From NCBI GenBank assembly GCA_028693815.1, contig JAQUUP010000010.1, positions 1-62,748 of the forward strand: 62,748 nt of DNA, given 5' to 3'. Within the stretch, counting starts at the first letter, position 1. Each line of letters starts with the position of its first letter. A program made the position numbers and the translations under genes. The notes under the pieces were generated by a model, which did not search any database, was not told the DNA's origin, and worked only from the letters and a program-made list of their open reading frames with translations. Source of the DNA: Candidatus Omnitrophota bacterium (GTDB lineage Bacteria; Omnitrophota; Gorgyraeia; Zapsychrales; Aceulaceae). This document shows, one piece after another, positions 5,997 to 62,067 of this stretch.

Positions 5997-6006
5997 TGGA
6001 GAAAGC

Positions 6007-6951: not shown

Positions 6952-6955
6952 TTAT

Positions 6956-9674: not shown

Positions 9675-10596
9675 TATTACTCAACGTGATTCATTCTGGA
9701 ATAAAGTTTATGATTTAGCAAAAGAAAATAAAGACATCATTGTTTTATCTGCAGATATGGGTGCGCCATCTCTGGATAAATTTAGAACAGATTTATCTGC
9801 TCAATTTGTCAATGTTGGCATCGCTGAGCAAAATGCTATTTTGATAGCTTCTGGTCTTGCGAAGGAGGGCAAAAGAGTTTTTGTTTATGCGATCGCTCCT
9901 TTTATTACATTTCGATGTCTCGAGCAGATTCGTGTTAATAATTCAATGATGAAAATTCCAATTACAATTGTTGGGGTTGGTGCTGGTTTTGGATATGAAG
10001 ATTCTGGGCCCACGCATCACATGATAGAAGATATTGCGCTTATGCGTTCTATGCCAGATATCGTGATTAATAGCATCTCGGATAGCACGATGGCTGCGGC
10101 TGTTGCTGAGATGTCGACGCGGATGAAAAAAGCAAACTATGTTCGCTTAGATAGACTTGTTTTGCCAACATTGTATGGTCAAGAGGAAGACTTTTCTAAA
10201 GGTGTCGCAATTTTAAGACCGGGTGATATTTATATTGCAGCGACAGGCAGTATGGTGCATGTTGCGCTTGAAGCAGCAGAAAAGCTTAATAAGAGCGGAG
10301 TTAACGTCGGTGTCGTGGACGTATACACTATTCCTATTAATGAAAAGAATTTTGTTGAAGCTATCGACGGATCTAAGAAGCTAATCGCTCTCGAAGAACA
10401 CTTTGTTTCTGGTGGGTTTGGTGGAGCTATCTGTGAAGTTTTGCAGGATAATGCTGTTACAATTCCTGTGAAACGTATTGGGCTTTCGATGGATCAAGGA
10501 TATTGCTATAAATATGGCGGACGTGATGTCATTCGTCAGCATTATGGCATTGACGCTGACAGTGTTGTGCAAAAAATAAATGAATTCTTAAAATAA
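9667..10596 (+). CDS. Transketolase, C-terminal (pyrimidine-binding) subunit
   Basis: FVNVGIAEQNAILIASGLA, GPTHHMIEDIALMRSMP. ATG 9667 overlaps the upstream stop by 8 nt; the track ORF begins at TTG 9649. Confidence 0.85.
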   Translation: MNNITQRDSFWNKVYDLAKENKDIIVLSADMGAPSLDKFRTDLSAQFVNVGIAEQNAILIASGLAKEGKRVFVYAIAPFITFRCLEQIRVNNSMMKIPITIVGVGAGFGYEDSGPTHHMIEDIALMRSMPDIVINSISDSTMAAAVAEMSTRMKKANYVRLDRLVLPTLYGQEEDFSKGVAILRPGDIYIAATGSMVHVALEAAEKLNKSGVNVGVVDVYTIPINEKNFVEAIDGSKKLIALEEHFVSGGFGGAICEVLQDNAVTIPVKRIGLSMDQGYCYKYGGRDVIRQHYGIDADSVVQKINEFLK

Positions 10597-10610
10597 GTAT
10601 AAGAAATTTA

Positions 10611-43566: not shown

Positions 43567-44319
43567 TTAAGGTTGCGTAAAGCGTTGCTTGTTTGATTTG
43601 AATCCTTCAGGCCCCAGAATTTTTAAGGCCATTTCATCTTTATCTATCCCTGCATCAAAATCGTATTCAATAATGGCCAAAACTTGCAAGACAAATTCAA
43701 AGGGATTTTCTAGCATTTGCGGACTTTCTTGTGCCATGCCGTCAATCATGTCGACGTAGAATTCAGGAGATTTCTTGATAATAACACCTTTTTCTCTAAA
43801 GAAATCAATATAGCTTGCAACGATAAATAGTTTTGGTTCGATATCTGCGATTAGAGGCCATGCTTTGCTTGAGGTCTCGAGCGCCGTTAAAACATCTGAC
43901 ATATCAGCGACTTCGACAATTTCTGAATCATCAACAATTTCAATTTCTTTTTGGATGGGGATGTCCATCTCAAGTTCAATTCCTTGAGACCTTAGTTGCT
44001 GTTCTATGATAGCTTGTTGCATTGCGGCTCCCTGTACTGCCGCTTGTTGCATCGCGACTCCTTGCATTATTTGCTGATCTATGATGGCTTGCTGCATCAC
44101 GGCTTGCTGTATCGCGGCTCCTTGTACGGCTTGGACTGCCGCTTGTTGCATCGCGGTTCCTTGGACTGCGGCTTGCTGCATCATTTGCTGTTCCATCATA
44201 CCTTGTTGCATTGCAGCTTCTCGTGCAGCTTGCTGTTGCTTCATGGCAACAACGCCGCCGGCATAGGAGAAAGAATAAAAAAAGAACAGAAATAGGATCG
44301 CTAAAATTATTTTTTTCAT
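43567..44319 (-). CDS. Secreted protein with a Met/Gln/Ala-rich repeat region and an acidic C-terminal domain, unknown function
   Basis: Signal peptide MKKIILAILFLFFFYSFSYA, then about 95 aa of AMQQAAVQG-type repeats. ATGA overlap with the metF stop. Confidence 0.65.
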   Translation of the reverse strand: MKKIILAILFLFFFYSFSYAGGVVAMKQQQAAREAAMQQGMMEQQMMQQAAVQGTAMQQAAVQAVQGAAIQQAVMQQAIIDQQIMQGVAMQQAAVQGAAMQQAIIEQQLRSQGIELEMDIPIQKEIEIVDDSEIVEVADMSDVLTALETSSKAWPLIADIEPKLFIVASYIDFFREKGVIIKKSPEFYVDMIDGMAQESPQMLENPFEFVLQVLAIIEYDFDAGIDKDEMALKILGPEGFKSNKQRFTQP

Positions 44320-46764: not shown

Positions 46765-47611
46765 AGTTTTAATTACCGGTGGACTAGGTCAGCTAGGAAT
46801 CGCTTTCCAAGAGCGATTTCTAAAAGATCGCGTTGATTTTTGTTCAGCGGATAAGCAAGATTTTGATATTTCTGATATTGATCAAGCCCAAGAGCTTATT
46901 AAGCAGACTCGGCCAGATTTTATTGTCAATTGCGCGGCCTATAATCTGGTGGACAAAGCTGAAGATGACCCAAAAGAGGCATTTTTAGTTAATCGTGAGG
47001 GAGTAAAGAATTTAGCTCTTTTGTGTCGCGAAAAGGGGATCTTTCTTGTTCATTACGGAACGGATTATATTTTTGATGGCAAAAAAGGAAAACCTTATAC
47101 AGAAGAAGATGCGTCTAATCCCCTTAATCAATATGGCATTAGTAAATTGGCTGGCGAGAAAGCGGTTGAAGAAATTCTAAGTGATTATTTGATTTTTCGC
47201 GTTAGCTGGGTGTTTGGCAAGGGCAAGCAGAATTTTCTGTACAAGCTTAATGAATGGGTGCAAAAAAGCAATGCTCTTCAAATTACAGATGATGAAATTT
47301 CTGTTCCGACATCAGTGGATGATATTGTTGAGGGAACAATGCGAGCGATGAAGAAGAGTTTAGTTGGGCTTTATCACATGCCGAATAGCGGGCTTTGTTC
47401 TCGTTATGAGTGGGCAAAGTATTTCTTTGAGAGAATGCAAAAGAAGATTGATATCAAGCCTGTTTCGCTGGAAAGTTTTAATTTAAAAGCAAAAAGACCA
47501 AAGTTTTCTGCCATGTCCAACGAGAAGGTTTGCCAGCTTTTGAATTGGAACATGCCAAGCTGGCAGAAATCTGTTGAGAGCTTTATTAGTTTAAAACAAG
47601 GCAAATATTAA
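46748..47611 (+). CDS. rfbD: dTDP-4-dehydrorhamnose reductase
   Basis: VLITGGLGQLG, NCAAYNLVDKAE, VHYGTDYIFDG, YGISKLAGE. Confidence 0.9.
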   Translation: MFLKNKVLITGGLGQLGIAFQERFLKDRVDFCSADKQDFDISDIDQAQELIKQTRPDFIVNCAAYNLVDKAEDDPKEAFLVNREGVKNLALLCREKGIFLVHYGTDYIFDGKKGKPYTEEDASNPLNQYGISKLAGEKAVEEILSDYLIFRVSWVFGKGKQNFLYKLNEWVQKSNALQITDDEISVPTSVDDIVEGTMRAMKKSLVGLYHMPNSGLCSRYEWAKYFFERMQKKIDIKPVSLESFNLKAKRPKFSAMSNEKVCQLLNWNMPSWQKSVESFISLKQGKY

Positions 47612-47723
47612 ATTAAAGTACAGACACAGCTGCTGGGCCGCAGCTGCATCTGTATAAATTCGTGCGGCTGACTTGACGCTTCTTCTAGTCGCGTAAGTCA
47701 GGCACTCATTTAAAGGAAAAAAT

Positions 47724-48920
47724 ATGAAAGTTCCATTTGGCACGATTACAATTAACAAACAAGCAAAAGATCTTGTTAATGAGGCCCTAAACTCTGGTCG
47801 CGTTTCGTCGGGCAAATACGTTTCTGAATTCGAGCAAGGCTTTGCCAGCCTTGTTAATGCAAAAGAGGCGATTGCTGTCAGTAGTGGCACGGATGCTGAT
47901 ATTTTAGCTTTGGCAACGGCTTATGATTTTGGAGCGCAAAGGGAAGATGAAGTTATTGTTCCTGCGCTTTCTTTTGTAGCGACGGGCAATGCTGTTTTGC
48001 ATGCAGGATTCAAGCCTGTTTTTGTTGATATTGATTACAAGACGCTTAATATTGATCCGCAAAAAATAGAAGCTGTTATTACAAAAAAAACAAAAGCCAT
48101 TATGCCGGTTCATCTGATGGGTAAGCCTGCCCAGATGGATGTTATTATGGATATTGCTAAAAAGCATAATTTGTTTGTTGTTGAGGATGCGGCTGAAGCC
48201 CATGGTGCTGTTTATAAGGGTAAAAAAGTAGGCGAATGGGGTGACATGGCGGCCTATAGTCTTTATTTAGCGCATATCATTACAACGGTTGAGGGTGGAA
48301 TTGTGACAACCAACAGAGAAGATTTGGCAGAGATTTTGCGGTCTCTTCGATGTCATGGGCGTGCGTGTAAATGTAAGACATGTGTAGTTAATACAATTAA
48401 TGGTTATTGTGAAAAACGTTTTGCGGACGGCAAAGATATTCGATTTATTTTTGAGCGCGTTGGCTATTCATCAAAAATGAACGAGCTAGAGGCTGCTGTG
48501 GGTATCGCAAGCCTTGAGATGTATGACGATATTATTGAAAAAAGACATCATAATTTGATCACCATGATTAATCGGCTAAAAGAATTCGGTGATTTTTTAG
48601 ATACCATTGAAGAGGAAAAAGATGAAAAAATCGGTCCTCATGCCTTCCCAATCATTGTTAAAAAAGACGCGCCTTTTACTCGCAATGAATTAGTTGATTA
48701 TTTAGATAAAAATGGCATTGATACGCGTGATCTTTTTTCTTCAATGCCGACGCAGTGCGCGGGTTTTAAATATCTAGGACATAGATTAGGCGAATTTCCA
48801 GTTTCTGAGTTTATGGGAACTAATGGTCTTCATATTGGTGTTCATCAAGATATTGGTGCACAACAGATTGATTATGTTTTTGAAACGGTCGGAGATTTTA
48901 TTAAAAGCAAGATTCGCTAA
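47724..48920 (+). CDS. PMP-dependent sugar 3-dehydratase of the RfbH/E1/SpnQ/ColD branch of the DegT family
   Basis: DegT fold (VSSGTDADILAL, EDAAEAHGA), but the catalytic Lys position is His184 (YLAHIITTVEGG). This is followed by the Cys cluster LRCHGRACKCKTCVVNTINGYCEKRF. Confidence 0.75.
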   Translation: MKVPFGTITINKQAKDLVNEALNSGRVSSGKYVSEFEQGFASLVNAKEAIAVSSGTDADILALATAYDFGAQREDEVIVPALSFVATGNAVLHAGFKPVFVDIDYKTLNIDPQKIEAVITKKTKAIMPVHLMGKPAQMDVIMDIAKKHNLFVVEDAAEAHGAVYKGKKVGEWGDMAAYSLYLAHIITTVEGGIVTTNREDLAEILRSLRCHGRACKCKTCVVNTINGYCEKRFADGKDIRFIFERVGYSSKMNELEAAVGIASLEMYDDIIEKRHHNLITMINRLKEFGDFLDTIEEEKDEKIGPHAFPIIVKKDAPFTRNELVDYLDKNGIDTRDLFSSMPTQCAGFKYLGHRLGEFPVSEFMGTNGLHIGVHQDIGAQQIDYVFETVGDFIKSKIR

Positions 48921-48944
48921 GAGCGTGAAGTAGAAACATAGTGA
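48832..48944. repeat. Copy A of a ~113-nt direct repeat (3' end of the dehydratase CDS plus ~25 nt)
   Basis: It aligns with 52709-52821. The first 26 nt are identical (atattggtgttcatcaagatattggt); overall identity is about 80% by hand count. Confidence 0.75.
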
Positions 48945-48948
48945 ATGT

Positions 48949-48977
48949 TTGATTATTTTAACTTTGTGTGCTATATT
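48949..48977 (+). promoter_or_regulatory. Promoter of AbiE module 1
   Basis: TTGATT (48949-48954), 17-nt spacer ending TGc, TATATT (48972-48977). Confidence 0.5.
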
Positions 48978-48978
48978 A

Positions 48979-49013
48979 TGTATGAAACTGTCATTTAATG
49001 ACAGTTTCATACA
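48979..49013. promoter_or_regulatory. 35-bp perfect palindrome, likely AbiEi operator
   Basis: tgtatgaaactgtcatt-t-aatgacagtttcataca. It starts 1 nt after the -10 box and ends at the AGGAG RBS of the antitoxin gene. Confidence 0.6.
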
Positions 49014-49022
49014 GGAGATAAC

Positions 49023-49667
49023 ATGAACAAAATTGTTGATTTGATCATTCAGAATATCCCTTATGATGTGTTTTCTTATTCGGTATTAATAAATATTATT
49101 GCCGGATCTAGGGATAGGCGCCATGCGATGATAAAAAGAGCCATCGCTTCAAAAGAAATTATTCATTTGCGTAGAGGCTTGTATTGCCTTGCGCAAAAAT
49201 ATCGTCGTAATGCGCTAGATCTTTTTGAAGTTGCTCAGAAAATTTATGGTCCATCATATATCAGCCTGGAATCTGCTTTGGCGTATCATGGATGGATCCC
49301 GGAAGCGGTTCATACGGTTACAAGTGCTTGTGTTCGTCGATCTAAAGATTTCAAGACATCTGTTGGGAATTTTTCTTATTGTAGAGTTCCGTTAAAGATT
49401 TTCTACGAAGGTGTTGAGACAGCGGGGTCTGCACGGCAAGGGATTTTTTTTATCGCAAGGCCGCTTAAGGCTTTGGCGGATTATGTTTATGTTCACAAGA
49501 AAGAATGGGAGGGCTTAAGTCCTCTTGTAAGCAGCTTAAGAATAGATCTTGAGAATTTTCGAAGTGTGCGTAAAAAAGAGTTTCTTGAGCTTAAAAAAAC
49601 ATATCCTTCAAAGCGCGTCTGTTGTTTTATCAGATCTATAGAAAAGGAACTGCGCGATGAGCATTAA
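49023..49667 (+). CDS. abiEi: Type IV TA system AbiEi-family antitoxin/transcriptional regulator
   Basis: 214 aa, IIHLRRGLYCL motif, LESALAYHGWIPE. It overlaps the downstream AbiEii gene by 11 nt. Confidence 0.85.
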   Translation: MNKIVDLIIQNIPYDVFSYSVLINIIAGSRDRRHAMIKRAIASKEIIHLRRGLYCLAQKYRRNALDLFEVAQKIYGPSYISLESALAYHGWIPEAVHTVTSACVRRSKDFKTSVGNFSYCRVPLKIFYEGVETAGSARQGIFFIARPLKALADYVYVHKKEWEGLSPLVSSLRIDLENFRSVRKKEFLELKKTYPSKRVCCFIRSIEKELRDEH

Positions 49668-50511
49668 GATTATCCAGAAACGATTAGAGTCTTATCGGTG
49701 CCGTTCGGCTCAGGAAGAGGACCATGCCTTGCGCGAGATCACTCAGGAGGTGGCGCTTGCGGCTCTTGCGCGGTCAGATTTCTACCAAACTGCGTCCTTT
49801 CAAGGAGGAACATGTTTGCGGATCTTTTATGGGTTAAACCGCTTTTCTGAGGATCTTGATTTTATTTTAAAAGAGACTAATGGTGCATTTTCTTTTGAAA
49901 AATATCTTAAGAATTTATCGATTGAATTTCAAGCCTATGGATATCAGGTTGAGATTGTCGATAGATCTAAGGCTGAGACAACGGTTAAAAAAGCGTTTAT
50001 TAAAGATGATTCCTTAGGAAAAGTTTTACAGCTACAGCATTTAAAAACTGATCGATCAATGTCGAAGATCAGGATCAAGATTGAGGTCGACACAAATCCA
50101 CCTCAAGGAAGCTTTTTTGAAAATAAATTTTTAGATTTTCCGTTTGTTTGTGCTTTGACAACCCAAGATATTCCAAGCCTTTTTGCTGGAAAGATCCATG
50201 CTTTGCTTTGCCGTGAGTATGTGAAAGGAAGGGATTGGTATGATTTTCTATGGTATGTGAGTTATCGCGCCACTATTAATTTAAAGTTCTTGGAAGCTGC
50301 TCTTGAACAAATCGGTCCTTGGGCTGGGCAGAACGTAAAAATTGATGATCAATGGTGTTGCGCTCAGCTAAGTGAAAAGATTTTATCGATTGATTGGCAA
50401 GCGGCACGTAATGATGTTGCTCGTTTCATTAAGCCTGCTGAACTGGCATCACTTGATTTGTGGAATGTGGACCTTTTTTTGGATAGGGTCAAGAAACTAG
50501 GAGATGTTTAA
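49657..50511 (+). CDS. abiEii: AbiEii/AbiGii-family nucleotidyltransferase toxin
   Basis: FQGGTCLRIFYGLNRFSEDLDF (pol-beta NTase GG...DxD motif), KIHALLCREYVKGRDWYD. Confidence 0.9.
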   Translation: MSIKIIQKRLESYRCRSAQEEDHALREITQEVALAALARSDFYQTASFQGGTCLRIFYGLNRFSEDLDFILKETNGAFSFEKYLKNLSIEFQAYGYQVEIVDRSKAETTVKKAFIKDDSLGKVLQLQHLKTDRSMSKIRIKIEVDTNPPQGSFFENKFLDFPFVCALTTQDIPSLFAGKIHALLCREYVKGRDWYDFLWYVSYRATINLKFLEAALEQIGPWAGQNVKIDDQWCCAQLSEKILSIDWQAARNDVARFIKPAELASLDLWNVDLFLDRVKKLGDV

Positions 50512-50544
50512 TTTCTTTGTGATTATGTTAACCCAAAAGATCTA

Positions 50545-50554
50545 CCCCCCCCCC
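50545..50554. repeat. C10 homopolymer tract
   Basis: tcta-cccccccccc-tgagg. It stands out in an AT-rich genome, 34 nt after the abiEii stop. Confidence 0.95.
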
Positions 50555-50703
50555 TGAGGTGGTCCGTTTGGCGTTCGTTTCGAAGAGTGAGTAAAACGGA
50601 GAGAGGTTGTTGTCTCGTTTTAGGATTTTGAATTTAGCTTTTTTCTTAAGAGCCTTATTCTAACTTAAAATCTTTAATCTGTTAGTGGGGAGCAGAATAA
50701 CAG

Positions 50704-50727
50704 ACCTTTATTTTAAGAATTAAAAAC
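50704..50727. repeat. Left copy of a ~25-nt imperfect direct repeat flanking AbiE module 2
   Basis: acctttattttaagaattaaaaac versus acctttatcttagaaattaaaaaac at 52677-52701. Confidence 0.5.
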
Positions 50728-50728
50728 T

Positions 50729-50771
50729 GGACATTTCTGCTTTTGGTAACGATAGGACATTCTTGCTTTGG
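50729..50771. promoter_or_regulatory. Two 17-18-nt direct repeats upstream of the module 2 promoter (possible AbiEi-2 binding sites)
   Basis: ggacatttctgcttttgg (50729-50746) and ggacattcttgctttgg (50755-50771). Confidence 0.35.
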
Positions 50772-50794
50772 CTTGACAGTGAAAAATAATATTA

Positions 50795-50822
50795 TTGACA
50801 ATATAAGAAATGATGGTATTTT
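50795..50822 (+). promoter_or_regulatory. Putative promoter of AbiE module 2
   Basis: TTGACA (50795-50800), 16-nt spacer ending TGg, TATTTT (50817-50822). A second TTGACA lies at 50773-50778. Confidence 0.4.
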
Positions 50823-50864
50823 AACACTATATAGAAGTTAACTCAAATTCCTTTAGAGGGCATT

Positions 50865-51662
50865 ATGGGTAATAAAGTTAGAGAGCGTCTGGGTAAGAAA
50901 GAAATTGATGTGATATCAAGGCTTTCCTATGAAAAGAAGCGGATCGTCACAAAAGAAGATTTAGATACCTTTTTTAATTTTAGTGATAATGCGCGAAATA
51001 AAGTTGTTTATCGATTGAAGAAGAAAGCTATTCTTTTTCCAATTAAGAAGGGAGTATATGTTTTTTCTCCTCTTGAGTACGGTGAACAAGGCGCTGCAAT
51101 TAATGAGATGCTTGTCCCGCCACAATTTTTCCCACAGGGCAATTATTATATTGGCTATTCAACGATGTTTAATTACTACAATCTCACAGAGCAACTTTTT
51201 CAGGTCATTTATGTTTTAAATACATCCTTCCAGAAGAAAAGGAAGATTTGCGGGATTCAATTTAACTTTTTACGAGTACCGGATAATCGTATGTATGGAC
51301 TTGAGAAAATAAAGATTGAAGGACAGGAAGTTGTAATTAGCTCATTAGAGAAGACGTTGGTAGATCTTGTCTATTTTAATAAGCCGGTTGGAGGACTGAA
51401 AGGTGCGCTTGAAATCCTTGATATTGAACTTCAAAAAGAACGCTGCGATGTAAAAAAGTTTATTCGTTTTGCGTCAAGATTTCCTGTTATAAAGATTCGT
51501 AAAATAATAGGCGTGGCGTTAGAGGAAAAGGGCTATTCTGATGAAATATTAGCTCCTCTTGTTAGAAGTCTTAAAAATACTGCGATAAGTTCATCGACAG
51601 GATCATTTAAGGGGAAATTAAATAAAAAATGGAAAGTTATCATTAATGATCCACAAGAATAA
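50865..51662 (+). CDS. abiEi: AbiEi-family antitoxin (second, divergent module)
   Basis: 265 aa, winged-helix-like N-terminus, ILFPIKKGVYVFSP motif, LEKTLVDLVYF. It overlaps the downstream toxin gene by 17 nt. Confidence 0.8.
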   Translation: MGNKVRERLGKKEIDVISRLSYEKKRIVTKEDLDTFFNFSDNARNKVVYRLKKKAILFPIKKGVYVFSPLEYGEQGAAINEMLVPPQFFPQGNYYIGYSTMFNYYNLTEQLFQVIYVLNTSFQKKRKICGIQFNFLRVPDNRMYGLEKIKIEGQEVVISSLEKTLVDLVYFNKPVGGLKGALEILDIELQKERCDVKKFIRFASRFPVIKIRKIIGVALEEKGYSDEILAPLVRSLKNTAISSSTGSFKGKLNKKWKVIINDPQE

Positions 51663-52527
51663 AAAAGAATTTATTGATTTAATTAATATGACTGTTCAAA
51701 GAACAGGATTTAGAGCACATCTTTTGGAAAAGGATTATTATTTGACACATCTTCTTTCCAAGATTAATGATCTCTCAGAGGATTTGATCTTTAAAGGAGG
51801 GACTTGTCTCAACAAGATTTATTATTCTTACTATCGTTTAAGCGAAGATTTGGATTTTAGTATGAAGTTGTCCGAGGATGCAACAGCTCGAGGGAAGCGG
51901 CAAAAATGTATACAGCCGATCAAAGATGGAATTGAAGCCTATGCTAATCAGATTGGAATGACTTTGGGCGATACACAAAATGCAGGGCGAAATGAATCGA
52001 AGCAATATGTTTATTATTTTATGTACAAATCCGTTGTTCAGCCAAAAGAACAAGTCATTAAATTTGAGATTGGTCTTAGATTTAATCCGATTCTTGATGT
52101 TGAAGCAAGAGAAGTGAAGCATAAATTTTTACATCCGTTTACAGGCAAACCATTATTTGATGGAGGCAAGGTCAATTGTTTGTCTTTGAAAGAAATTGTT
52201 AGTGAAAAATTAAGAGCCGCTGCCAATCGAAAGACGATTGCTCCTCGGGATTTCTATGATCTGGATTTTATAGTAAGACAAGGTTTTAATTTGTCTGATA
52301 AGCAAGTTTTGAATCTTTTTGTTAAGAAGCTAGAAGAAGACGGTGGCGATACGGATTTAGCAAAATACAGGATCAATCTCGGTCGTTCAGATAAAGAAAT
52401 TAAAGACATGAAATCGAGGATTGAAAATGAGTTGTTTGATGTTTTGACCGTTAGCGAGAGGGAGAATTTTGATTTGGATAACGCGTTTAAGAGGATCAAT
52501 AAGGTGATGAGGGAAATCAGGATCTGA
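51646..52527 (+). CDS. abiEii: AbiEii/AbiGii-family nucleotidyltransferase toxin (second module)
   Basis: FKGGTCLNKIYYSYYRLSEDLDF, KLRAAANRKTIAPRDFYD. Confidence 0.9.
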   Translation: MIHKNKKEFIDLINMTVQRTGFRAHLLEKDYYLTHLLSKINDLSEDLIFKGGTCLNKIYYSYYRLSEDLDFSMKLSEDATARGKRQKCIQPIKDGIEAYANQIGMTLGDTQNAGRNESKQYVYYFMYKSVVQPKEQVIKFEIGLRFNPILDVEAREVKHKFLHPFTGKPLFDGGKVNCLSLKEIVSEKLRAAANRKTIAPRDFYDLDFIVRQGFNLSDKQVLNLFVKKLEEDGGDTDLAKYRINLGRSDKEIKDMKSRIENELFDVLTVSERENFDLDNAFKRINKVMREIRI

Positions 52528-52676
52528 TATGCCTAAAATTAAGGATCTGTCGAAATACAAAGTCTTAGAAAGTCATTGCCAAGAAGGTGAAGATGAGAAA
52601 ACGGTACATTTCTCCTGCAGATGCTTCTTGGTGTAGATTTAAAATAGATGCAAGGCCTGTAAAAAGGAAAGAATGA

Positions 52677-52701
52677 ACCTTTATCTTAGAAATTAAAAAA
52701 C
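52677..52701. repeat. Right copy of the ~25-nt direct repeat flanking AbiE module 2
   Basis: It matches 50704-50727 with 3 substitutions and one extra A. It lies 7 nt before the gene-fragment repeat. Confidence 0.5.
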
Positions 52702-52707
52702 GAAATT

Positions 52708-52797
52708 TATATTGGTGTTCATCAAGATATTGGTCTTGAGCAGATTGATTATGTTTTCGAAGTTATTAAGGATTTTATCAAAAATAAGATTCGTTAA
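52708..52797 (+). pseudogene. Orphan 3' fragment of an RfbH-like dehydratase gene (displaced C-terminal 29 codons)
   Basis: It reads YIGVHQDIGLEQIDYVFEVIKDFIKNKIR* versus HIGVHQDIGAQQIDYVFETVGDFIKSKIR* at the end of CDS 47724-48920. There is no homology or start codon upstream. Confidence 0.75.
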
Positions 52798-52878
52798 GAG
52801 CGTAAAGTAACAACATTCTGAGAACGACCTATTTCCAAGCGTATTGTCCTAAGTCATTACAGCACAACATTTTTAATC

Positions 52879-52951
52879 CGGATTTTGCAGAAGCAAAATC
52901 CGCCCGTAGGGTCGCAGCGTCGCAACTTGTTGCGACTTGCGGGGTTACCCT
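52879..52951 (+). terminator. Two GC-rich hairpins downstream of the orphan gene fragment (probable ancestral terminator region)
   Basis: cggattttgc-agaa-gcaaaatccg (52879-52902) and a long imperfect stem agggtcgcagcgtcgcaa-cttg-ttgcgacttgcggggttaccct (52908-52951). There is no clean T-run. Confidence 0.35.
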
Positions 52952-53036
52952 CGCCATAAAGCGTTTTGCATTTGAATTCTTTAATTCCCTGTTTTAAGAC
53001 GAAAAAGATATTCAAATGTAAAATTCGGGTTAATCC

Positions 53037-53064
53037 TTGACAGAATATTAAAATCTTTTATAAT
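53037..53064 (+). promoter_or_regulatory. Consensus sigma70 promoter ahead of the regulator/leg cluster
   Basis: TTGACA (53037-53042), 16-nt spacer, TATAAT (53059-53064). Confidence 0.6.
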
Positions 53065-53085
53065 AATGTTCATTAATTGAACATT
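53065..53085. promoter_or_regulatory. Inverted repeat immediately after the -10 box (possible operator)
   Basis: aatgttca-ttaat-tgaacatt, 8-bp arms. Confidence 0.4.
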
Positions 53086-53123
53086 GATCTTGTTTTTAGA
53101 ATAAACCGCTGAAGGATTTTGAT

Positions 53124-53687
53124 ATGATTGATGAAAGAGAATTTGAACTTGTGAATATTATTGGCTCTGAAATTGTTTCCAATCAAAGAGATCTATCCCA
53201 CCACGTCAACCTTTCCTTAGGTCAGACAAACATGCTTTTGCGCAGGCTTATTGCTAAGGGCTATATTCGCATAAGAAAAATTGATAAGCGCAGAGTCAAA
53301 TACTTGCTTACTCCGCAAGGTCTTGCGGAAAAAATGAACAAATCCATCAAATATACCTTAAGGACGATTAATTCTATTAGCCTTATCAAAGAGCGTCTCA
53401 AAGATCTTCTGAGAGAAATTTATGAAAAAGGGGAGCGAAAATTTATTGTTATTGGAAAATCTGATTTAGCTATGATGATTGATATAGCTGTAAAGGAGAT
53501 GAATCTTAAAGATTATTCTTTGGAGCATTTTGAGGTCATTCCTCAAGAAAAAATGGACGGCTTATTTTTAATTTGTAAAGAAAATGTCATTATTGATAAA
53601 TCAATTACAAATCAGGTTGTTGATTGTATTCATGAATTGGCTAAAGAGCATGGTTTGCAAGAGGATGGCGAGAGCTCTGTTTTTTAG
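53124..53687 (+). CDS. Winged-helix (MarR-like) DNA-binding regulator with an extra C-terminal domain
   Basis: NQRDLSHHVNLSLGQTNMLLRRLIAKGYIRIRKIDKRRVKYLLTPQGL is an HTH plus wing. Confidence 0.7.
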   Translation: MIDEREFELVNIIGSEIVSNQRDLSHHVNLSLGQTNMLLRRLIAKGYIRIRKIDKRRVKYLLTPQGLAEKMNKSIKYTLRTINSISLIKERLKDLLREIYEKGERKFIVIGKSDLAMMIDIAVKEMNLKDYSLEHFEVIPQEKMDGLFLICKENVIIDKSITNQVVDCIHELAKEHGLQEDGESSVF

Positions 53688-53752
53688 CTCTTGTTTTTTT
53701 GATCAGTGCTAAATACTATTTTAACTATTAAGATTTTAGATTTTGAACAATC

Positions 53753-54757
53753 ATGACTAAGCAGAAAAAAATAAAACAAATTCTTTTGACTGGTGCAGAT
53801 GGATTTATTGGAAGCCATTTGACTGAGGAGTTAGTAAGAGAGGGATATAAAGTTAAGGCTTTTGTTTTTTATAATTCTTTCAATTCTTGGGGATGGCTTG
53901 ATAGCTTGCCAAAGGAAATCCTTGCAAAGATAGATGTCTTTTGCGGGGACGTGAGAGACCCTAACGGTGTCCGGGAGGCTATGAGGGGCTGTGAAATGGT
54001 TTTTCATTTGGCGGCATTAATCGGCATCCCATTTTCCTATCATTCTCCTGATTCGTATGTTGATACAAACATTAAAGGAACCTTAAATGTTTTACAGGCG
54101 GCACGAGAGCAGAAGACTGAACGAGTATTGGTAACCTCAACTTCTGAGGTCTATGGAACAGCACAATATGTTCCCATTGATGAAAAACATCCATTGCAAG
54201 GACAGTCTCCTTACAGTGCCACAAAGATTTCCGCGGATAAAATCGCCGAATCTTTTTATCGATCGTTTGATTTGCCGGTCACAATTGTTCGGCCTTTTAA
54301 TACCTATGGTCCGAGACAATCAGCCAGAGCGATTATTCCCACCATCATCACCCAGCTAATTTCAGGAAAAAAAGAAATACAATTAGGCGATTTAACTCCC
54401 ATGCGGGATCTTAATTATGTGAAAGATGTTTGTCAGGGTTTTATTGAGATCGCGAAATCAGATAAAACAGTTGGGGATGAGATTAATGTTTGTTCAGGAA
54501 GTGAGATTTCAATACAGGAGCTCGCAGAAAAATTAATTTCGTTGATCGGCTCTCAGGCTAAAATTATTTGTGATCAGCAAAGGATCCGTCCTGAAAAATC
54601 CGAAGTCAGGCGCTTATGCGGCGAAAATGCCAAGATCAAAGAGTTGACAGGATGGAAATCCAGGTATTCTTTGGAGGATGGATTGAAAGAAACAATTAAG
54701 TGGTTTTCCAACAAGGAAAACCTTAACCGTTACAAGGCTGATATTTATAATGTCTAA
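53753..54757 (+). CDS. legB: NAD-dependent nucleotide-sugar 4,6-dehydratase, LegB-like
   Basis: ILLTGADGFIGSHLTEELVREGYKVKAFVFYNSFNSWGWLD, TSTSEVYG, YSATKISAD. Confidence 0.7.
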   Translation: MTKQKKIKQILLTGADGFIGSHLTEELVREGYKVKAFVFYNSFNSWGWLDSLPKEILAKIDVFCGDVRDPNGVREAMRGCEMVFHLAALIGIPFSYHSPDSYVDTNIKGTLNVLQAAREQKTERVLVTSTSEVYGTAQYVPIDEKHPLQGQSPYSATKISADKIAESFYRSFDLPVTIVRPFNTYGPRQSARAIIPTIITQLISGKKEIQLGDLTPMRDLNYVKDVCQGFIEIAKSDKTVGDEINVCSGSEISIQELAEKLISLIGSQAKIICDQQRIRPEKSEVRRLCGENAKIKELTGWKSRYSLEDGLKETIKWFSNKENLNRYKADIYNV

Positions 54758-58597: not shown

Positions 58598-59529
58598 AAA
58601 AAATTCTCATTATCGGATTAGGATCTATTGGTCAGCGGTATGCATCGCTATTGCATCAACATGGTGGACTTGAAATTTTTGCCCTCCGCCAGCAAGGCAA
58701 TGATGTGGTTGAAGGTGTAAAGAATTTGTATTCGTGGGATGAGGTGGCCTCGGCGAAACCGGATATCGCTTTTATTACTAATCCGACGTCATTGCATATT
58801 GCAACGGCCATTCAATGTGCGCGTTTGGGCATGCATTTGTTTATTGAAAAGCCTTTGGATAAGAATCTTTTAGCGTTTGATGAATTGCATGCGATTGTCA
58901 AAGAACAGCAGTTACAGTGCTATGTGGCCTATAACCTTCGGTTTCATCCGGGAATACTAGATCTTAAAGAGGTGCTTTCTCAAGAATCGTATTATTATGC
59001 CCATATTCTTAATTCTTCTTATTTGCCGGCTTGGCGTCCAGGGGCGGATTATTGGAAAAATTACAGCGGCCAAGCGCTTTTTGGGGGAGGAGTGCTTCTT
59101 GATCTCTCTCATGAATTAGATTATGCGCAGTTTTTGTTCGGCGAAATTCAACATATTGAAGGTTATTTTGAGCATTCTTCAGATTTAAAAATTGACGTAG
59201 AAGATACCGCGGATTTATCAGTATTTTTTATAAATCAGCGTCGCATCCAAATTCATTTAGATTTTTGCAGTTTGCCAGTTGAGCGCGTTATCAAAGTTTT
59301 TGGCCAAAAGAGCGTTTATATAGTAGATCTTATTAAGAATACGTTTCAGACATATTCTTATGATGGCTCTATTAAAGAAGTGAATTATGAGATCGACCGT
59401 AATGCTATGTATGCACGGCAAATTGATTATTTCTTAATTGGCTTGAGAAATGAAACGTCTGTAGATAATTTAGAGGAGTCTGCAAAATTATTGAAATGTA
59501 TTATTGAATTTAAGGCGGGCAAAAAATGA
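58594..59529 (+). CDS. Gfo/Idh/MocA-family oxidoreductase (PtmF-like accessory enzyme of leg clusters)
   Basis: MKKILIIGLGSIGQRYASLL, EKPLDKN. ATGA overlap on both sides. Confidence 0.65.
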   Translation: MKKILIIGLGSIGQRYASLLHQHGGLEIFALRQQGNDVVEGVKNLYSWDEVASAKPDIAFITNPTSLHIATAIQCARLGMHLFIEKPLDKNLLAFDELHAIVKEQQLQCYVAYNLRFHPGILDLKEVLSQESYYYAHILNSSYLPAWRPGADYWKNYSGQALFGGGVLLDLSHELDYAQFLFGEIQHIEGYFEHSSDLKIDVEDTADLSVFFINQRRIQIHLDFCSLPVERVIKVFGQKSVYIVDLIKNTFQTYSYDGSIKEVNYEIDRNAMYARQIDYFLIGLRNETSVDNLEESAKLLKCIIEFKAGKK

Positions 59530-60233
59530 ATATTTTAGTCACGATATGCGCTCGGGCAGGATCTAAGGGTGTTAAAAACAAAAACATTCGTGAGTTGGCG
59601 GGCAAGCCGCTTGTTGCCTATGCTATTGAACAGGCTCAAGAATGGGGTAAGGCGGCGCATATTGTTGTGTCTACGGATTCTCAGCAGATTTCGAAGTTAG
59701 CACAAGATTGTGGTGCAGAAGTTCCGTTTTTGCGAGAGAAGCAATTGGCCTCTGATGAGTCGGGAAAAATAGCAGCTATTATCGACGCTTGGAAACGTAG
59801 TGAGGCGCATTTTGGATGTTCGTACGATTATGTTATTGATTTGGATGTTACCGCTCCTTTACGGGCAATGTCTGATATTGATGCTTGTTTGGATTTGGCA
59901 GTCAAAAAAAAGGCACTCAATGTGATTACTGTTGTGCCGGCACATCGTAATCCGTATTTTAATATGGTTCAGGACGTTGGTGATGGGAGGGCTCGGTTGG
60001 TGAATGGAGATCAACAGGAATACCTGAGGCGGCAGGATGCACCCCAAATTTTTGATATGAATGCCTCGATTTATGTTTTTGGGAGAGGTTTTTTGGAGCA
60101 GGAATTGAATCTGTTTACAGAAAAGACGTTTTGTCATGTTATGGGTGGAATATCTCGCTATGATATTGATTGTGAATTGGACTTTGAGATGGTTGAAATG
60201 ATTGTGAAAAATGGATTATGGAGTTTTCAATGA
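59526..60233 (+). CDS. legF: CMP-nonulosonic acid synthetase (acylneuraminate cytidylyltransferase family, LegF-like)
   Basis: ICARAGSKGVKNKNIRELAGKPLVAYAIEQA, RRQDAPQIFDMNASIYV. Confidence 0.85.
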   Translation: MNILVTICARAGSKGVKNKNIRELAGKPLVAYAIEQAQEWGKAAHIVVSTDSQQISKLAQDCGAEVPFLREKQLASDESGKIAAIIDAWKRSEAHFGCSYDYVIDLDVTAPLRAMSDIDACLDLAVKKKALNVITVVPAHRNPYFNMVQDVGDGRARLVNGDQQEYLRRQDAPQIFDMNASIYVFGRGFLEQELNLFTEKTFCHVMGGISRYDIDCELDFEMVEMIVKNGLWSFQ

Positions 60234-60988
60234 GCGAAATTCTAGAAAATTTTAATTTTAAAAACAAAACGATTGTGATTCTTGGCGGGGAGGGCCTCAT
60301 TGGCAGGGCGCTAGTCGAAGGCTTTGTTGAGACCCAAGCGAAGGTAGTTGTGTTGGATTTGGAGAATGCCGTAGATAAAGACCGAGTTTTTTTCAAAAAA
60401 GTTGATGTTGCTCAACTTGAAATACTGGAAGATTTTTTTAGCAATCTTAAAAAAGAGTTTGGATATGTTGATGCGTTTATTAATGCATCCTATCCACGCA
60501 CGACTAGTTGGGGCAAGGGCGTAGAGGAGACCTCTTTGGAGTCATTGAAGGAAAATGTGGATATACACCTTAATTCTTATTCTTGGTTAACACGAATTAT
60601 GGCGATGTTAATGAAAGACAAGGGAGGAAGTATTATTAATTTTAGCTCGATTTATGGTATGTTGGGTAATGATTTTTCCGTGTATCAAGGGACGGCGATG
60701 ACTTCTCCTATGGAGTATTCGGTCATAAAAGGTGGTATTACTAATTTAACACGATATATGGCATCGTATTTTGGGCCTTATGGGGTTAGGGTTAATACAG
60801 TTTCGCCAGGAGGGGTTTTAAATCATCAAGATGAAACATTTGTTCAGAAATATATTCAAAAAACGCCTCTAGGTCGTATGGCCAAGCCCGAAGATATGGT
60901 TGGGATTGTGCAGTTATTGGCTAGTGATTTGTCGTCTTATATTACAGGACAAAACATAGTTGTAGATGGAGGCTGGAGTATATGGTAA
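60230..60988 (+). CDS. Short-chain dehydrogenase/reductase (PtmA-like)
   Basis: VILGGEGLIGRAL, YSVIKGGITNLTRYMA (YxxxK). ATG 60230 overlaps the legF stop (ATGA) with GGAG 6 nt upstream. Confidence 0.7.
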   Translation: MSEILENFNFKNKTIVILGGEGLIGRALVEGFVETQAKVVVLDLENAVDKDRVFFKKVDVAQLEILEDFFSNLKKEFGYVDAFINASYPRTTSWGKGVEETSLESLKENVDIHLNSYSWLTRIMAMLMKDKGGSIINFSSIYGMLGNDFSVYQGTAMTSPMEYSVIKGGITNLTRYMASYFGPYGVRVNTVSPGGVLNHQDETFVQKYIQKTPLGRMAKPEDMVGIVQLLASDLSSYITGQNIVVDGGWSIW

Positions 60989-62067
60989 AAGAAAACTTAA
61001 ATATTAGTAAATGGCTGATTGACAAGAAAAGTACTGTGAAGCAGGCAATGAAGCAAATGCGACATGTTGGAGAAAAGCTTCTTTTTGTAGTTTCAAATAA
61101 TTCTGTGTTATATGGAGCGTTAAGTGATGGAGATATTAGGAAGTGGATTCTGAAAAAAAACGATCTCAGTGAGAAAATAACTAAAATTTGTAACAAACAA
61201 CCGATTATACTAGAAAAATCATATAATGTTAATCAAGTAAAAAAGATATTTATAGATCTTAAAATACAAGCGCTTCCTATTGTTTCAAGAAATAAAATAA
61301 TAGATGTTATAAGCTGGGATGATATTTTTGCAGGGGAAAAAGACGTTAAAGTTTCTGTAAAAAAAGTCAACATTCCTTTAGTTGTAATGGCAGGGGGAAA
61401 GGGAACTAGATTGGATCCTTTTACAAGGGTGCTCCCAAAACCACTTATTCCTATAGGAGACAAACCTATTGTAGAGCACATTGTTGAAAATTTCTCGGAA
61501 TATGGGGTTAAAGAGTTTTATTTCTCAGTTAATCATAAGGCTAAAATGATACGTGCATATTTTGATGAAATGAAGGATATTTTTAATATTAAATATCTTG
61601 AGGAAAGTAAACCTTTGGGAACAGCTGGAGGACTTAGACCTCTTTTTGGTGAAAGACATAAAAGGTATTTTGTTGTTAACTGTGATATTTTCTTAGGAAC
61701 AAATATTTCAGATATAGTTGATTTTCATGATGAGAATAATAATGATGTAACAGTTGTTGCGTCATATAAGCATCATGTTATGCCTTATGGAGTGTGTAAC
61801 ATTAATAAAGGCGGAGAGCTTAAAAGCATTGATGAAAAACCTGAGTATGATTTTTTGATTAACATAGGGGCATACATTTTGAACAAAAGAGCGATAAAGC
61901 TTATCCCGGCAAATAAAATGTTTCATATGACGGATCTGATAAAAGCATGCAAAAAGGAAAAATTCAAAATCAAGGTTTTTCCTATATCTGATAATATGTG
62001 GATGGACATAGGCCAACTAGAAGAGTATAGAAGAACCTTAAAAACCATAGGCATGTTACAAGATTAG
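60982..62067 (+). CDS. ptmE: CBS-pair plus sugar-1-phosphate nucleotidyltransferase (PtmE-like)
   Basis: N-terminal CBS pair, then VVMAGGKGTRLDPFTRVLPKPLIPIGDKPIVEHIV. Confidence 0.75.
   Translation: MVKENLNISKWLIDKKSTVKQAMKQMRHVGEKLLFVVSNNSVLYGALSDGDIRKWILKKNDLSEKITKICNKQPIILEKSYNVNQVKKIFIDLKIQALPIVSRNKIIDVISWDDIFAGEKDVKVSVKKVNIPLVVMAGGKGTRLDPFTRVLPKPLIPIGDKPIVEHIVENFSEYGVKEFYFSVNHKAKMIRAYFDEMKDIFNIKYLEESKPLGTAGGLRPLFGERHKRYFVVNCDIFLGTNISDIVDFHDENNNDVTVVASYKHHVMPYGVCNINKGGELKSIDEKPEYDFLINIGAYILNKRAIKLIPANKMFHMTDLIKACKKEKFKIKVFPISDNMWMDIGQLEEYRRTLKTIGMLQD

Follow-up and report, generated by a model that had tools for sequence, protein, structure and literature searches.

The window, i.e., the whole stretch of 62,748 nucleotides that was analysed here (contig JAQUUP010000010.1 of a Candidatus Omnitrophota bacterium), carries an intact sugar-enzyme gene, two AbiE cassettes behind it and, before a regulator gene, a second and isolated copy of the gene's 3' end (Table 1). 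The best full-length matches of this dehydratase-like gene are RfbH, under the equivalog cutoff, and the E1 dehydrases of PDB entries 3bcx and 3bb8, and its orthologues in other Omnitrophota (lineages designated here by L numbers) are 80-87% identical. The regulator heads a nonulosonic-acid gene cluster, as the same gene heads NeuB clusters in L168-L172, and its region (53056-53641) is 90% identical in nucleotides to that of L003. It is the conserved right border of a variable region, the interval between metF and the regulator, which differs completely across the other Omnitrophota in a comparison that rests on about six uncultivated lineages (for example, MNT/HepT in L171 and PDC-S23 in L003), and which often holds defence or toxin-antitoxin genes.

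Table 1. Features of the locus, with positions counted from the first letter of the window.
Feature	Position	Strand	Details
GC-rich double hairpin	47618..47706	+	Separates rmlD from the dehydratase-like gene; fold energy -41 kcal/mol, z -5.0
DegT/DnrJ/EryC1-family sugar enzyme, RfbH/E1 3-dehydrase-like	47724..48920	+	Intact; PF01041 1.8e-100
Copy A	48829..48944	+	Last 92 nt of the gene, including the stop codon, plus 24 nt past the stop
AbiE1 cassette	48945..50511	+	AbiEi 49023-49667, AbiEii 49657-50511; PADLOC 8e-62 and 5e-101
Unique spacer	50512..50777	+	C10 tract; 23-nt direct repeat, first copy; 17-nt tandem repeat before the AbiE2 promoter
AbiE2 cassette	50778..52527	+	AbiEi 50865-51662, AbiEii 51646-52527; PADLOC 4e-43 and 7e-39
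Unique spacer	52528..52705	+	23-nt direct repeat, second copy, at its end
Copy B	52706..52821	+	Codons 368-398 of a dehydratase allele with the stop and 24 nt beyond; isolated 3' end
GC-rich double hairpin	52879..52943	+	58 nt past copy B; z -3.4
Sigma-70 promoter and wHTH regulator	53037..53687	+	Perfect consensus 53037-53064; MarR/EPS-type wHTH 53124-53687

The two copies align without gaps at an offset of 3877 nt, with 92 of the 116 positions identical (79.3%), and the sequences flanking both copies in the same register show only the identity expected by chance (28-30%). The local alignment score of the pair is 114, against 20.0 +/- 2.4 and a maximum of 33 in 300 shuffles. This repeat had been noticed in a sequence-only reading of the window, whose estimate of about 80% over some 113 nt agrees with the 79.6% measured at 48832-48944, and whose initial block of 26 identical nucleotides is identical at 26/26 positions (48832-48857). 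The reading frame and the stop codon are intact in both copies, and the peptides are exactly those that it had given. The left edge of copy B coincides exactly with the block, and the remaining 90 nt are 73% identical.

Copy B starts at the conserved GxHIGVHQDI block of the family, lacks a start codon and has an in-frame stop upstream, at 52687-52689. A profile HMM built from 120 family members matches it at profile positions 366-397 only (52696-52791, E 2e-9) and finds no further dehydratase-family match in any frame of 48900-53130, in which tblastn concurs; the remark that nothing gene-like precedes the second copy is thus borne out for the window.

The differences between the copies look like those of two alleles that diverged while both were functional. 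For example, 22 of the 29 residues of the peptide tips are identical, and the tips differ solely at positions that also vary among the orthologues. The nucleotide changes cluster in the codons that vary between orthologues; in three codons every position differs, and the values of pN and pS are 0.145 and 0.525. Divergence of this kind fits a replacement end and a displaced end, rather than a fresh target duplication that later decayed. In the 24 nt past the stop, which are unconstrained, copy A is identical to copy B at 19 positions and to L164 at only 14, as would be expected of alleles whose lineages are closely related. An assembly artefact does not explain the junctions, given that two independently assembled Logan contigs of sample SRR22315505 reproduce both sides: the A side through AbiE1 to 50874 is identical base for base, and the AbiE2 end, copy B and the wHTH stretch are 100% identical over the compared stretches. 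The 26-nt identity is shorter than the usual assembly k-mers.

The type IV toxin-antitoxin or abortive infection system AbiE pairs AbiEi, a wHTH antitoxin and regulator, with the nucleotidyltransferase AbiEii. The two AbiE modules proposed between the copies proved to be two complete AbiEi/AbiEii pairs according to PADLOC and, for the toxins, to Pfam PF08843 (1.8e-29 and 5.9e-30). As in known systems, both modules consist of paired genes that overlap (by 11 and 17 nt) with full-length matches to AbiEi and AbiEii, and the predicted promoters of both carry repeats that would suit autoregulation. In AbiE1, a promoter-like site lies at 48949-48977 and a putative operator, a 27-nt inverted repeat, at 48969-49023, while the promoter of AbiE2 is predicted at 50773-50822. 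The two cassettes are only distantly related, the toxins being 27% identical over 189 residues.

AbiE1 is 86-87% identical in nucleotides to its counterpart in L164, with homology spanning 48945-50495. AbiE2 (50778-52515), on the other hand, recurs at 81-84% nucleotide identity in three unrelated Omnitrophota contexts, with sharp ends, no flanking repeats and no common 3' flank, and moves as a minimal unit of 1.74 kb. The spacer between the cassettes holds no gene remnant and no match to any related locus; the C10 tract that had been reported was located in it at 50545-50554. The further pair of short direct repeats also exists, as a 23-nt sequence at 50704-50726 and 52677-52699, which scores 31 against 18.7 +/- 2.3, a score reached in 0/500 shuffles.

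In three other lineages (L163-166, L180/181 and L167), the orthologue of the dehydratase-like gene is likewise followed by an AbiE module about 101 nt after the stop. In L163-166 and L180 this is AbiE1, at the same spacing, and in L167 the slot holds an unrelated AbiE type (31-36% amino acid identity). No second 3' end is found in any of the three, where AbiE is followed by a glycosyltransferase gene instead. These glycosyltransferases are orthologous to one another and to the one abutting the gene in L003 (57-83% amino acid identity), so that the AbiE slot is bounded by conserved genes able to mediate exchange.

L003 and L112 have no AbiE module, but carry a different fragment of the dehydratase (residues 165-297) immediately before their wHTH gene, which is 90% identical to that of the window, with a glycosyltransferase and a PDC-S23/RhuM-like gene between the intact gene and the fragment. 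This fragment is 86% identical in amino acids to the gene in the window, does not overlap copy B and does not contain the supposed 26-nt core, which indicates that broken gene copies occur beside the wHTH gene independently of the 26-mer or of AbiE. The sequence-only reading held that homology to the dehydratase extending upstream of 52709 would point to a decayed tandem paralogue; such homology is absent from the window and exists at the equivalent position in L003. No genome was found in which a full-length B-type allele directly precedes the sequence from 52822 onwards.

The locus is mosaic. Compared with L164, metF and the rml genes are 68% identical in nucleotides and saturated at synonymous sites (pS 0.63-0.78), while pS in the dehydratase-like gene is 0.69 in the 5' third, 0.44 in the middle third and about 0.77-0.80 in the 3' part. 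In four lineages AbiE1 directly adjoins end A, yet their synonymous divergence from L164 is unequal, as pS drops from the latter range to 0.37-0.42 in AbiE1. AbiE1 is younger than its flanks in every pair compared, those with L180 included. The break in sequence history with respect to L164 lies at 48944/48945, where the AbiE1 promoter starts, and not at 48857, the end of the supposed core: the adjoining AbiE1 promoter is identical to L164 at 66 of 78 positions, against the 14/24 of the nucleotides just before it.

On balance, the arrangement is probably the product of a 3'-end displacement by homology-anchored recombination, in a hotspot that accumulates toxin-antitoxin cassettes, as judged from these sequence comparisons. 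From the repeat, the cassettes, the arrangements in the relatives and the mosaic pattern, all of which are directly observed, we infer the order of events, the copy that was resident and the type of recombination. Copy B would be the vestigial 3' end of an earlier dehydratase-like allele that, in the presumed ancestral state, stood directly upstream of the wHTH gene. Donor DNA from a related member of the Omnitrophota, bearing all or part of a dehydratase allele followed by an AbiE cassette, would have recombined with the resident gene through conserved coding sequence, which served as the homologous anchor. A non-homologous join would have linked the far end of the donor DNA to the interior of the resident gene near codon 367, at the junction 52705/52706, of which the recipient side is seen here. 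A single crossover of a circularised fragment within the shared 116 nt would be an equivalent route. The outcome of either would be an intact gene that ends in A, followed by the passenger cassettes and by B, the displaced end of the resident allele, with no need for a dedicated integrase.

AbiE2, which has its own 23-nt repeat on either side, probably arrived in a second event of this type. The setting would be a surface-polysaccharide locus whose variable part, between metF and the wHTH/nonulosonic-acid cluster, may exchange alleles and small defence or toxin-antitoxin cassettes between lineages by recombination through conserved flanks. The repeat is most likely the trace of ordinary recombination at a surface-sugar locus that varies strongly, rather than evidence for a new type of mobile element.

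Two copies of the gene might also be old tandem or segmental paralogues, one after rmlD and the other before the wHTH gene, the second of which decayed by lineage-specific deletions while cassettes accumulated between them. Two genomes do have an intact copy and a remnant in the same relative positions, and in both the differences (about 79% nucleotide identity for A/B and for the intact gene and remnant of L003) resemble long divergence under selection. Two intact copies, however, occur in none of the relatives examined and, in the one segment that can be compared, the L003 remnant is closer to the intact gene of the window (84%) than the intact L003 gene is (80%), which is the opposite of the orthology that paralogues predict. 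Between the window and L003, divergence is also far greater in the rml genes (71% nucleotide identity) than in the wHTH region, which suggests that the left block was replaced rather than inherited from a common ancestor. Given this, a paralogous origin is unlikely.

The sequence-only reading had itself proposed an integration scar, i.e., a 3.9-kb integrative element that entered site-specifically at the 26-nt block as the att core, supplied end A and later lost its integrase, or was moved in trans. Such an island would be CIME-like. The anatomy that it described stands, with an intact gene, cargo and an orphan 3' end, and a working end A with a displaced end B fits this topology; the att core and the integrase are not supported. 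The direct repeats have the right topology, with frame and stop codon retained in both, and a perfect block at the upstream edge followed by diverged ends is the pattern expected from strand exchange there, and would suit an att core or a RecA crossover equally. The cargo is of the type usual in islands, and AbiE2-type cassettes adjoin a Phage_integrase gene in L175/176 and a Y1 transposase in L178/179, but in L175 and L178 the homology to AbiE2 ends before the integrase or transposase gene.

The 26-mer, moreover, codes in AT-preferred codons for IGVHQDIG, the C-terminal motif that is best conserved in the family, and 24 of its 26 positions are identical in L003, another AT-rich relative, so that no crossover is required for its identity. 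The position of the L164 break and the coreless remnant of L003 also argue against an att core. The relatives show neither an empty site nor the same two att sites, as AbiE1 stands at the same position in other lineages without an attR-like orphan.

That no recombinase ORF lies between the copies was confirmed, and neither an integrase nor a relaxase, nor a remnant of either, was found in the element or in the scanned ORFs of the window. The Pfam scan of 58 other large ORFs detects no family of integrases or transposases, and three further, terminal ORFs (59526-62067) were checked by PADLOC only; tblastn with tyrosine integrase and Y1 transposase queries from related loci finds no homologue in the window, which also has no tRNA gene. 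No integrase or recombinase gene was found at the corresponding site in L003, L163-167 or L180, and viral contigs yielded no exact 26-mer and no AbiE relative. The composition of the cargo, whose comparison had been suggested, is native, with GC and GC3 equal to those of the genome. Integration by such an element is therefore quite improbable.

CIMEs have att sites without recombination genes, and, like ICEs and IMEs, are integrated in the 3' ends of protein genes (fda, rpmG and rpsI) in streptococci (PMC7563491, PMC3234194). The window resembles a CIME in its small island, its cargo without recombination genes, and its direct repeats that include the 3' end of a protein gene left intact. CIMEs, however, can be traced to recognisable ICE/IME families, and integrase-bearing relatives with the same att sites occur at the gene concerned, whereas here no integrase-bearing relative, att conservation or integrase was found, and the cargo occurs elsewhere without the second repeat.

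AbiE might instead be actively targeted to the tail of the gene, for example by a trans-acting recombinase, loosely as Tn7 is to glmS, with copy B as a by-product. Across five lineages, this gene is followed by cassettes of three unrelated types (AbiE1, AbiE2 and that of L167), the nearest of which always begins about 25 nt past the stop codon, and both the youth of AbiE1 and the sharp, repeat-free ends of AbiE2 would accord with this. Ordinary exchange through flanking homology, however, explains the recurrence, given the conserved orthologous genes on both sides of the slot; AbiE2 copies stand elsewhere in unrelated contexts without the dehydratase-like gene, no candidate recombinase was found, and the jump in identity at 48945 coincides with the start of the predicted promoter and operator, where selective constraint alone can produce it. 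Targeting is, on this evidence, highly improbable. Integron gene cassettes were rejected, as the cassette test found no IntI integrase and no attC-type palindrome at the cassette ends, the two tails sharing only the 23-nt direct repeat.

The displacement of a 3' end preferred here has a precedent in the integrase-free C-terminal displacement proposed for rhs genes (Jackson et al. 2009, PMC2935791) and in the sequential displacement of T6SS effector-immunity modules in Vibrio cholerae (Kirchberger et al. 2017, PMC5361080). Those systems share with the window an intact gene, passengers and an orphan 3' fragment that starts in conserved sequence without a start codon, and have no integrase either, the proposed route being recombination in the conserved part with a circular intermediate or an illegitimate far end. 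Repeated events build arrays in them. The window has one orphan only, and its host gene is a sugar-nucleotide enzyme, not a polymorphic toxin. In the rhs and T6SS systems, the toxins encoded by the displaced tips differ, and what is selected as cargo is the new tip together with its immunity gene; in the window, both tips are predicted to be functionally equivalent, and the passengers appear to be self-contained AbiE modules.

Gene remnants occur at the junctions of O-antigen or capsule loci, and the mosaic identity blocks and leftover gene fragments of the window resemble such glycan loci and hotspots. The core defence hotspots of Pseudomonas aeruginosa are integrase-free and lie between core genes (PMC10250203). 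They share with the window a variable interval between conserved flanks (here metF and wHTH/NeuB), with lineage-specific content that includes toxin-antitoxin and defence genes; the window differs in lying inside a glycan locus, not a dedicated defence island, and its comparison covers some six uncultivated Omnitrophota lineages.

The locus has two GC-rich double hairpins. The one before the dehydratase-like gene has no Rfam match and is absent from L164, L003 and L180, where rmlD and the gene abut; it marks the left edge of a block 83.5% identical to L164 and is one of the two most stable 100-nt windows of the whole 62.7 kb. The one past copy B is the most stable 100-nt window of the whole sequence, at -41.4 kcal/mol.

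Copy A, the 3' end of the dehydratase-like gene, and copy B, the orphan end beyond the two AbiE cassettes, form an ungapped direct repeat at an offset of 3877 nt, with 92 of 116 positions identical (79.3%). The sequence-only reading had claimed such a repeat with an identical beginning of 26 nt, which is borne out (26/26), as are the frame and stop codon kept in both copies and the peptides that it quoted. Compared in the same register, the flanks of the repeat share only 28-30% identity, and the local alignment of the copies scores 114 against 20 +/- 2.4 for shuffled sequences. Copy B is, with a somewhat better than even chance, the displaced end of a former allele that abutted the wHTH regulator gene, left by recombination in which no integrase took part. 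An assembly artefact is ruled out, given that both junction regions are reproduced in two independently assembled Logan contigs of the same sample (SRR22315505), which match the A and B sides identically (100%) over the stretches compared.

That nothing gene-like precedes copy B, as had also been claimed, agrees with a profile HMM of the dehydratase family (120 members), which matches there at profile positions 366-397 only (52696-52791) and finds no other family match in any frame of 48900-53130, as does tblastn. Copy B has no start codon and lies shortly behind an in-frame stop; it is a dead fragment. The two copies show 18 coding differences, confined to 10 of the 29 codons compared; three codons differ at all three positions, and the changed codons are positions that vary among the orthologues too, the conserved codons being unchanged (pN 0.145, pS 0.525). 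A fresh duplication of the target site with later neutral decay is ruled out by this distribution, and the divergence has, judged from these codons, the pattern of two apparently functional alleles and not that of a decaying duplicated target. In the unconstrained 24 nt past the stop codon, copy A matches copy B at 19 positions and the main comparison locus of a related genome, L164, at 14, so that B appears to come from a lineage near that of A. The sequence beyond copy B carries no AbiE promoter, and the copy corresponds to an allele with no cassette downstream of it.

The window comes from the chromosome of an Omnitrophota bacterium; its other genes include those for LptD, PriA, Fmt, GAPDH, Def and Mla proteins and several clusters for sugar nucleotides, and the closest named relative of the dehydratase-like gene is in Candidatus Aceula meridiana. 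The best full-length matches of this gene are RfbH/E1 3-dehydrases, under the NCBIfam equivalog cutoff, and the label "dehydratase" is reasonable, if unproven. The two AbiE modules recognised earlier between the copies are both complete AbiEi/AbiEii pairs, only distantly related to each other (toxins 27% identical); in AbiE1, a promoter-like site is accompanied by a putative operator, a 27-nt palindrome (48969-49023), and AbiE2 has consensus-like promoters with a 17-nt tandem repeat upstream of them (repeats at 50729-50771). The spacer that holds a C10 homopolymer matches no related locus; the tract could change its length by slippage, and its function is not evident. Downstream of copy B, the MarR/EPS-type wHTH gene heads a nonulosonic-acid (NeuB) cluster. 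Genes of this type head such clusters in many Omnitrophota (L168-L172). L003 and L171 have conserved the wHTH promoter region, whereas the sequence that precedes it differs genome by genome.

Coordinates of features in the window and in loci of related Omnitrophota genomes
Feature	Locus	Coordinates	Remarks
Split transketolase and B12-binding radical SAM gene trio	window	8847-12089	in another sugar cluster
250-aa protein	window	43567-44319 (-)	adjoins metF
Double hairpin, left	window	47618-47706	-41.0 kcal/mol
DegT/DnrJ/EryC1-family gene	window	47724-48920	PF01041, 1.8e-100
Tract similar to L164	window	48150-48500	85-95% identical
Copy A	window	48829-48944	
26-nt perfect run	window	48832-48857	first copy
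AbiE1	window	48945-50511	
C10 homopolymer	window	50545-50554	34 nt past AbiEii-1 stop
23-nt imperfect direct repeat	window	50704-50726, 52677-52699	20/23 identical
AbiE2 unit	window	50778-52515	1.74 kb
In-frame stop	window	52687-52689	shortly upstream of copy B
Copy B	window	52706-52821	
Double hairpin, right	window	52879-52943	-41.4 kcal/mol
wHTH regulator with promoter	window	53037-53687	perfect sigma-70 consensus TTGACA-16-TATAAT; MarR/EPS-like, under TIGR04176 cutoff
Dehydratase-glycosyltransferase slot	L163	2889-4389	AbiE1
Dehydratase-glycosyltransferase slot	L180	11300-12800	AbiE1
Dehydratase-glycosyltransferase slot	L167	2125-3566	other AbiE
Dehydratase-glycosyltransferase slot	L003	2379-2382	empty
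AbiE2 unit	L175	6133-7870	
AbiE2 unit	L177	6138-7868	
AbiE2 unit	L178	6140-7864	
MNT/HepT toxin-antitoxin pair	L171	5888-6536	metF-wHTH interval
PDC-S23 (RhuM/Fic-like) candidate defence gene	L003	3732-4799	in variable interval

Five related arrangements were recovered. In L163-166 (dehydratase 87% identical in amino acids), the order is rmlC-rmlD-dehydratase, 102 nt, AbiE1, a glycosyltransferase and further glycan genes, and the same dehydratase, 102 nt, AbiE1 and glycosyltransferase follow one another in L180/181 (80%), which share the left synteny of the window from an HD-domain gene through metF and the rml genes. In L167, from Ca. Aceula meridiana (83%), the dehydratase is followed after 101 nt by an AbiE pair with only 31-36% amino-acid identity to AbiE1, and then by the orthologous glycosyltransferase. 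In L003/L112 (85%), the dehydratase overlaps the glycosyltransferase, AbiE is absent, and a PDC-S23/RhuM-like gene, a dehydratase fragment and the wHTH gene follow, the last with 90% nucleotide identity to that of the window; the fragment belongs to a second dehydratase allele (residues 165-297, 86% amino-acid identity to the window gene). Just past the wHTH gene, L003 also encodes a 458-aa protein (5991-7367) with weak matches to PADLOC pAgo- and SIR2-associated models. The more distant L168-172 have metF on the left, the wHTH/NeuB cluster on the right and entirely different genes between them, which in one genome include a toxin-antitoxin pair of another type. Across the phylum, toxin-antitoxin and defence genes seem to accumulate in this glycan locus, and none of the AbiE-bearing relatives examined has a second copy of the dehydratase 3' end.

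Under the preferred explanation, a former resident dehydratase allele would have abutted the wHTH gene, and incoming DNA, consisting of another dehydratase allele with the AbiE cassette or cassettes trailing behind it, would have recombined through the conserved coding sequence, its far end being joined inside the resident gene, so that copy B would be the displaced end of the latter. An equivalent route would be a single crossover of a circularised fragment within the common 116 nt. The same topology is described, with no integrase, in two known systems, namely C-terminal displacement in rhs genes, ascribed to homologous recombination and circular intermediates (PMC2935791), and sequential displacement in Vibrio T6SS arrays, for which homology-facilitated illegitimate recombination is held responsible (PMC5361080). 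The feature is probably one more example of something already known, a gene end orphaned by recombination in a variable glycan/defence hotspot.

The histories of neighbouring segments differ in the same locus. Relative to L164, metF and the rml genes have 68% nucleotide identity with synonymous sites saturated, and one tract of the dehydratase-like gene is far more similar than the parts that flank it (71-81%); this tract shows no added conservation against L003 or L167 and looks like a pair-specific recombination patch. AbiE1 is 86-87% identical to that of L164, and its synonymous divergence is below that of the flanking genes in 3/3 pairwise comparisons. Between the window and L003, nucleotide identity is 71% in rmlD and 81% in the dehydratase, and L167 has had another AbiE type swapped into the AbiE slot. 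Taken together, such comparisons indicate that the locus is a recombination mosaic. Orthologous genes flank the slot on either side, and the recurrence of cassettes in it can therefore be explained by ordinary exchange through the flanking homology.

A second possibility is that the copies are old paralogues that decayed differently from lineage to lineage. This is unlikely, since two intact copies occur in none of the examined relatives, and the sole similarity comparison that is testable points the opposite way.

The sequence-only reading had proposed an island with the 26-nt run as its att core. A decayed integrative element of the CIME type (defined in PMC7563491; integration into the 3' end of a gene is described for fda, PMC3234194) is rather improbable, and owes what credit it keeps mainly to the perfect block at the edge of the repeat. 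An element carrying its own replacement 3' end predicts an orphan wherever AbiE1 occurs, but the AbiE1-bearing relatives lack it, and the fragments on the wHTH side should start at the core, but that of L003 has neither the core nor the 3' end. The break in history relative to L164 lies at 48944/48945, the boundary between the repeat and the AbiE1 promoter, rather than where the 26-mer ends: after the 14/24 just past the stop codon, 66/78 positions are identical in the next 78 nt, and pS is 0.77-0.80 for the 3' part of the dehydratase, against 0.37-0.42 for the AbiE1 genes. The 26-mer codes for IGVHQDIG, the most conserved C-terminal stretch of the family, in the AT-ending codons that this genome prefers, and is matched at 24/26 positions in the AT-rich L003, 22/26 in L167 and 20/26 in L164; given this, the perfect run is unusual without being demanding, and it could be a short gene-conversion patch or a RecA crossover site. 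What stands of the island is its topology, with A incoming and B displaced; the att core, the dependence on an integrase and the notion of an "element" do not.

The claimed lack of a recombinase holds for the large ORFs of the window scanned with Pfam, in which no family of integrases, transposases or relaxases was found (the scan of the three ORFs at 59526-62067 used PADLOC only), and tblastn of the window with recombinases from related loci found nothing. The window has no tRNA gene in a tRNA scan, and hence no tRNA-type att site; the Rfam scan of 47000-53800 gave no match, and no hidden glycosyltransferase, integrase or dehydratase remnant was found in the spacers. In viral contigs, a pattern-based search of limited sensitivity found neither the exact 26-mer nor an AbiEii relative of either type. 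The comparison of cargo and flanks proposed as a test for foreign DNA was uninformative, since the cargo (GC 0.35-0.40, GC3 0.30-0.36) equals the rest of the window and the genome, and the proposed search for empty sites, performed through wHTH homologues, found no full B-type gene beside wHTH among the closest. Scans of genomes and metagenomes with the dehydratase protein returned few close relatives, the peptide patterns being too specific, and most of the useful contexts came from exact-protein look-ups.

The AbiE2 unit recurs with 81-84% nucleotide identity in three unrelated Omnitrophota contexts (in a defence island beside a Phage_integrase gene, in a housekeeping region and beside a Y1 transposase), the homology beginning at the promoter and stopping some 15 nt short of the toxin stop codon, with neither shared flanks nor terminal repeats. 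In the window, the 23-nt repeat that brackets it (ACCTTTATYTTARRAATTAAAAA) scores above all 500 shuffles, which suggests a second insertion event; the second copy of this repeat ends 6 nt upstream of copy B. It is very improbable that AbiE cassettes in Omnitrophota are minimal mobile units of ~1.6-1.75 kb (promoter to toxin stop) actively targeted to the tail of the dehydratase-like gene. They would then be inserted preferentially just 3' of this conserved gene, by a so far unrecognised mechanism that would act in trans or be guided by homology and could include the double hairpins bracketing the block, and the window would have caught one such insertion with its displaced target end.

In the whole 62.7-kb window, no other 100-nt fold is as stable as these two GC-rich hairpins (mean -17.6, sd 4.9 kcal/mol), which enclose the block from the dehydratase through AbiE1 and AbiE2 to copy B. 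The left one is absent from the relatives, in which rmlD and the dehydratase abut, and no comparable hairpins occur at the relatives' junctions. The two have no sequence similarity apparent by eye, no Rfam match and no U-tails, and their flanking segments match nothing else in the window; no connection between them and the repeat was found, and they may be REP-like intergenic palindromes.

If the displacement of a resident allele is the true history, the locus provides a clean example, from an uncultivated phylum, of toxin-antitoxin or defence cassettes riding allele exchange in a surface-glycan locus, and of an orphan gene tail that can mimic an att site, which is a caution for island-finding methods that accept the duplication of a gene 3' end as proof that integration was site-specific. 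Two compact AbiE cassettes are delimited, with sharp, repeat-free borders that recur across Omnitrophota genomes. No new mobility mechanism is revealed, and only active targeting of the cassettes would do so.

Two further observations concern other parts of the window. The N-terminal half of the 250-aa protein next to metF is long, repetitive and rich in Q/A/M; the protein matches no Pfam family, and proteins of 186-197 aa, also with no Pfam match, occupy the equivalent position in L164 and L180. Finally, the transketolase and radical SAM trio lies in L171 inside the variable metF-wHTH interval, and its two locations suggest that glycan modules move between loci.
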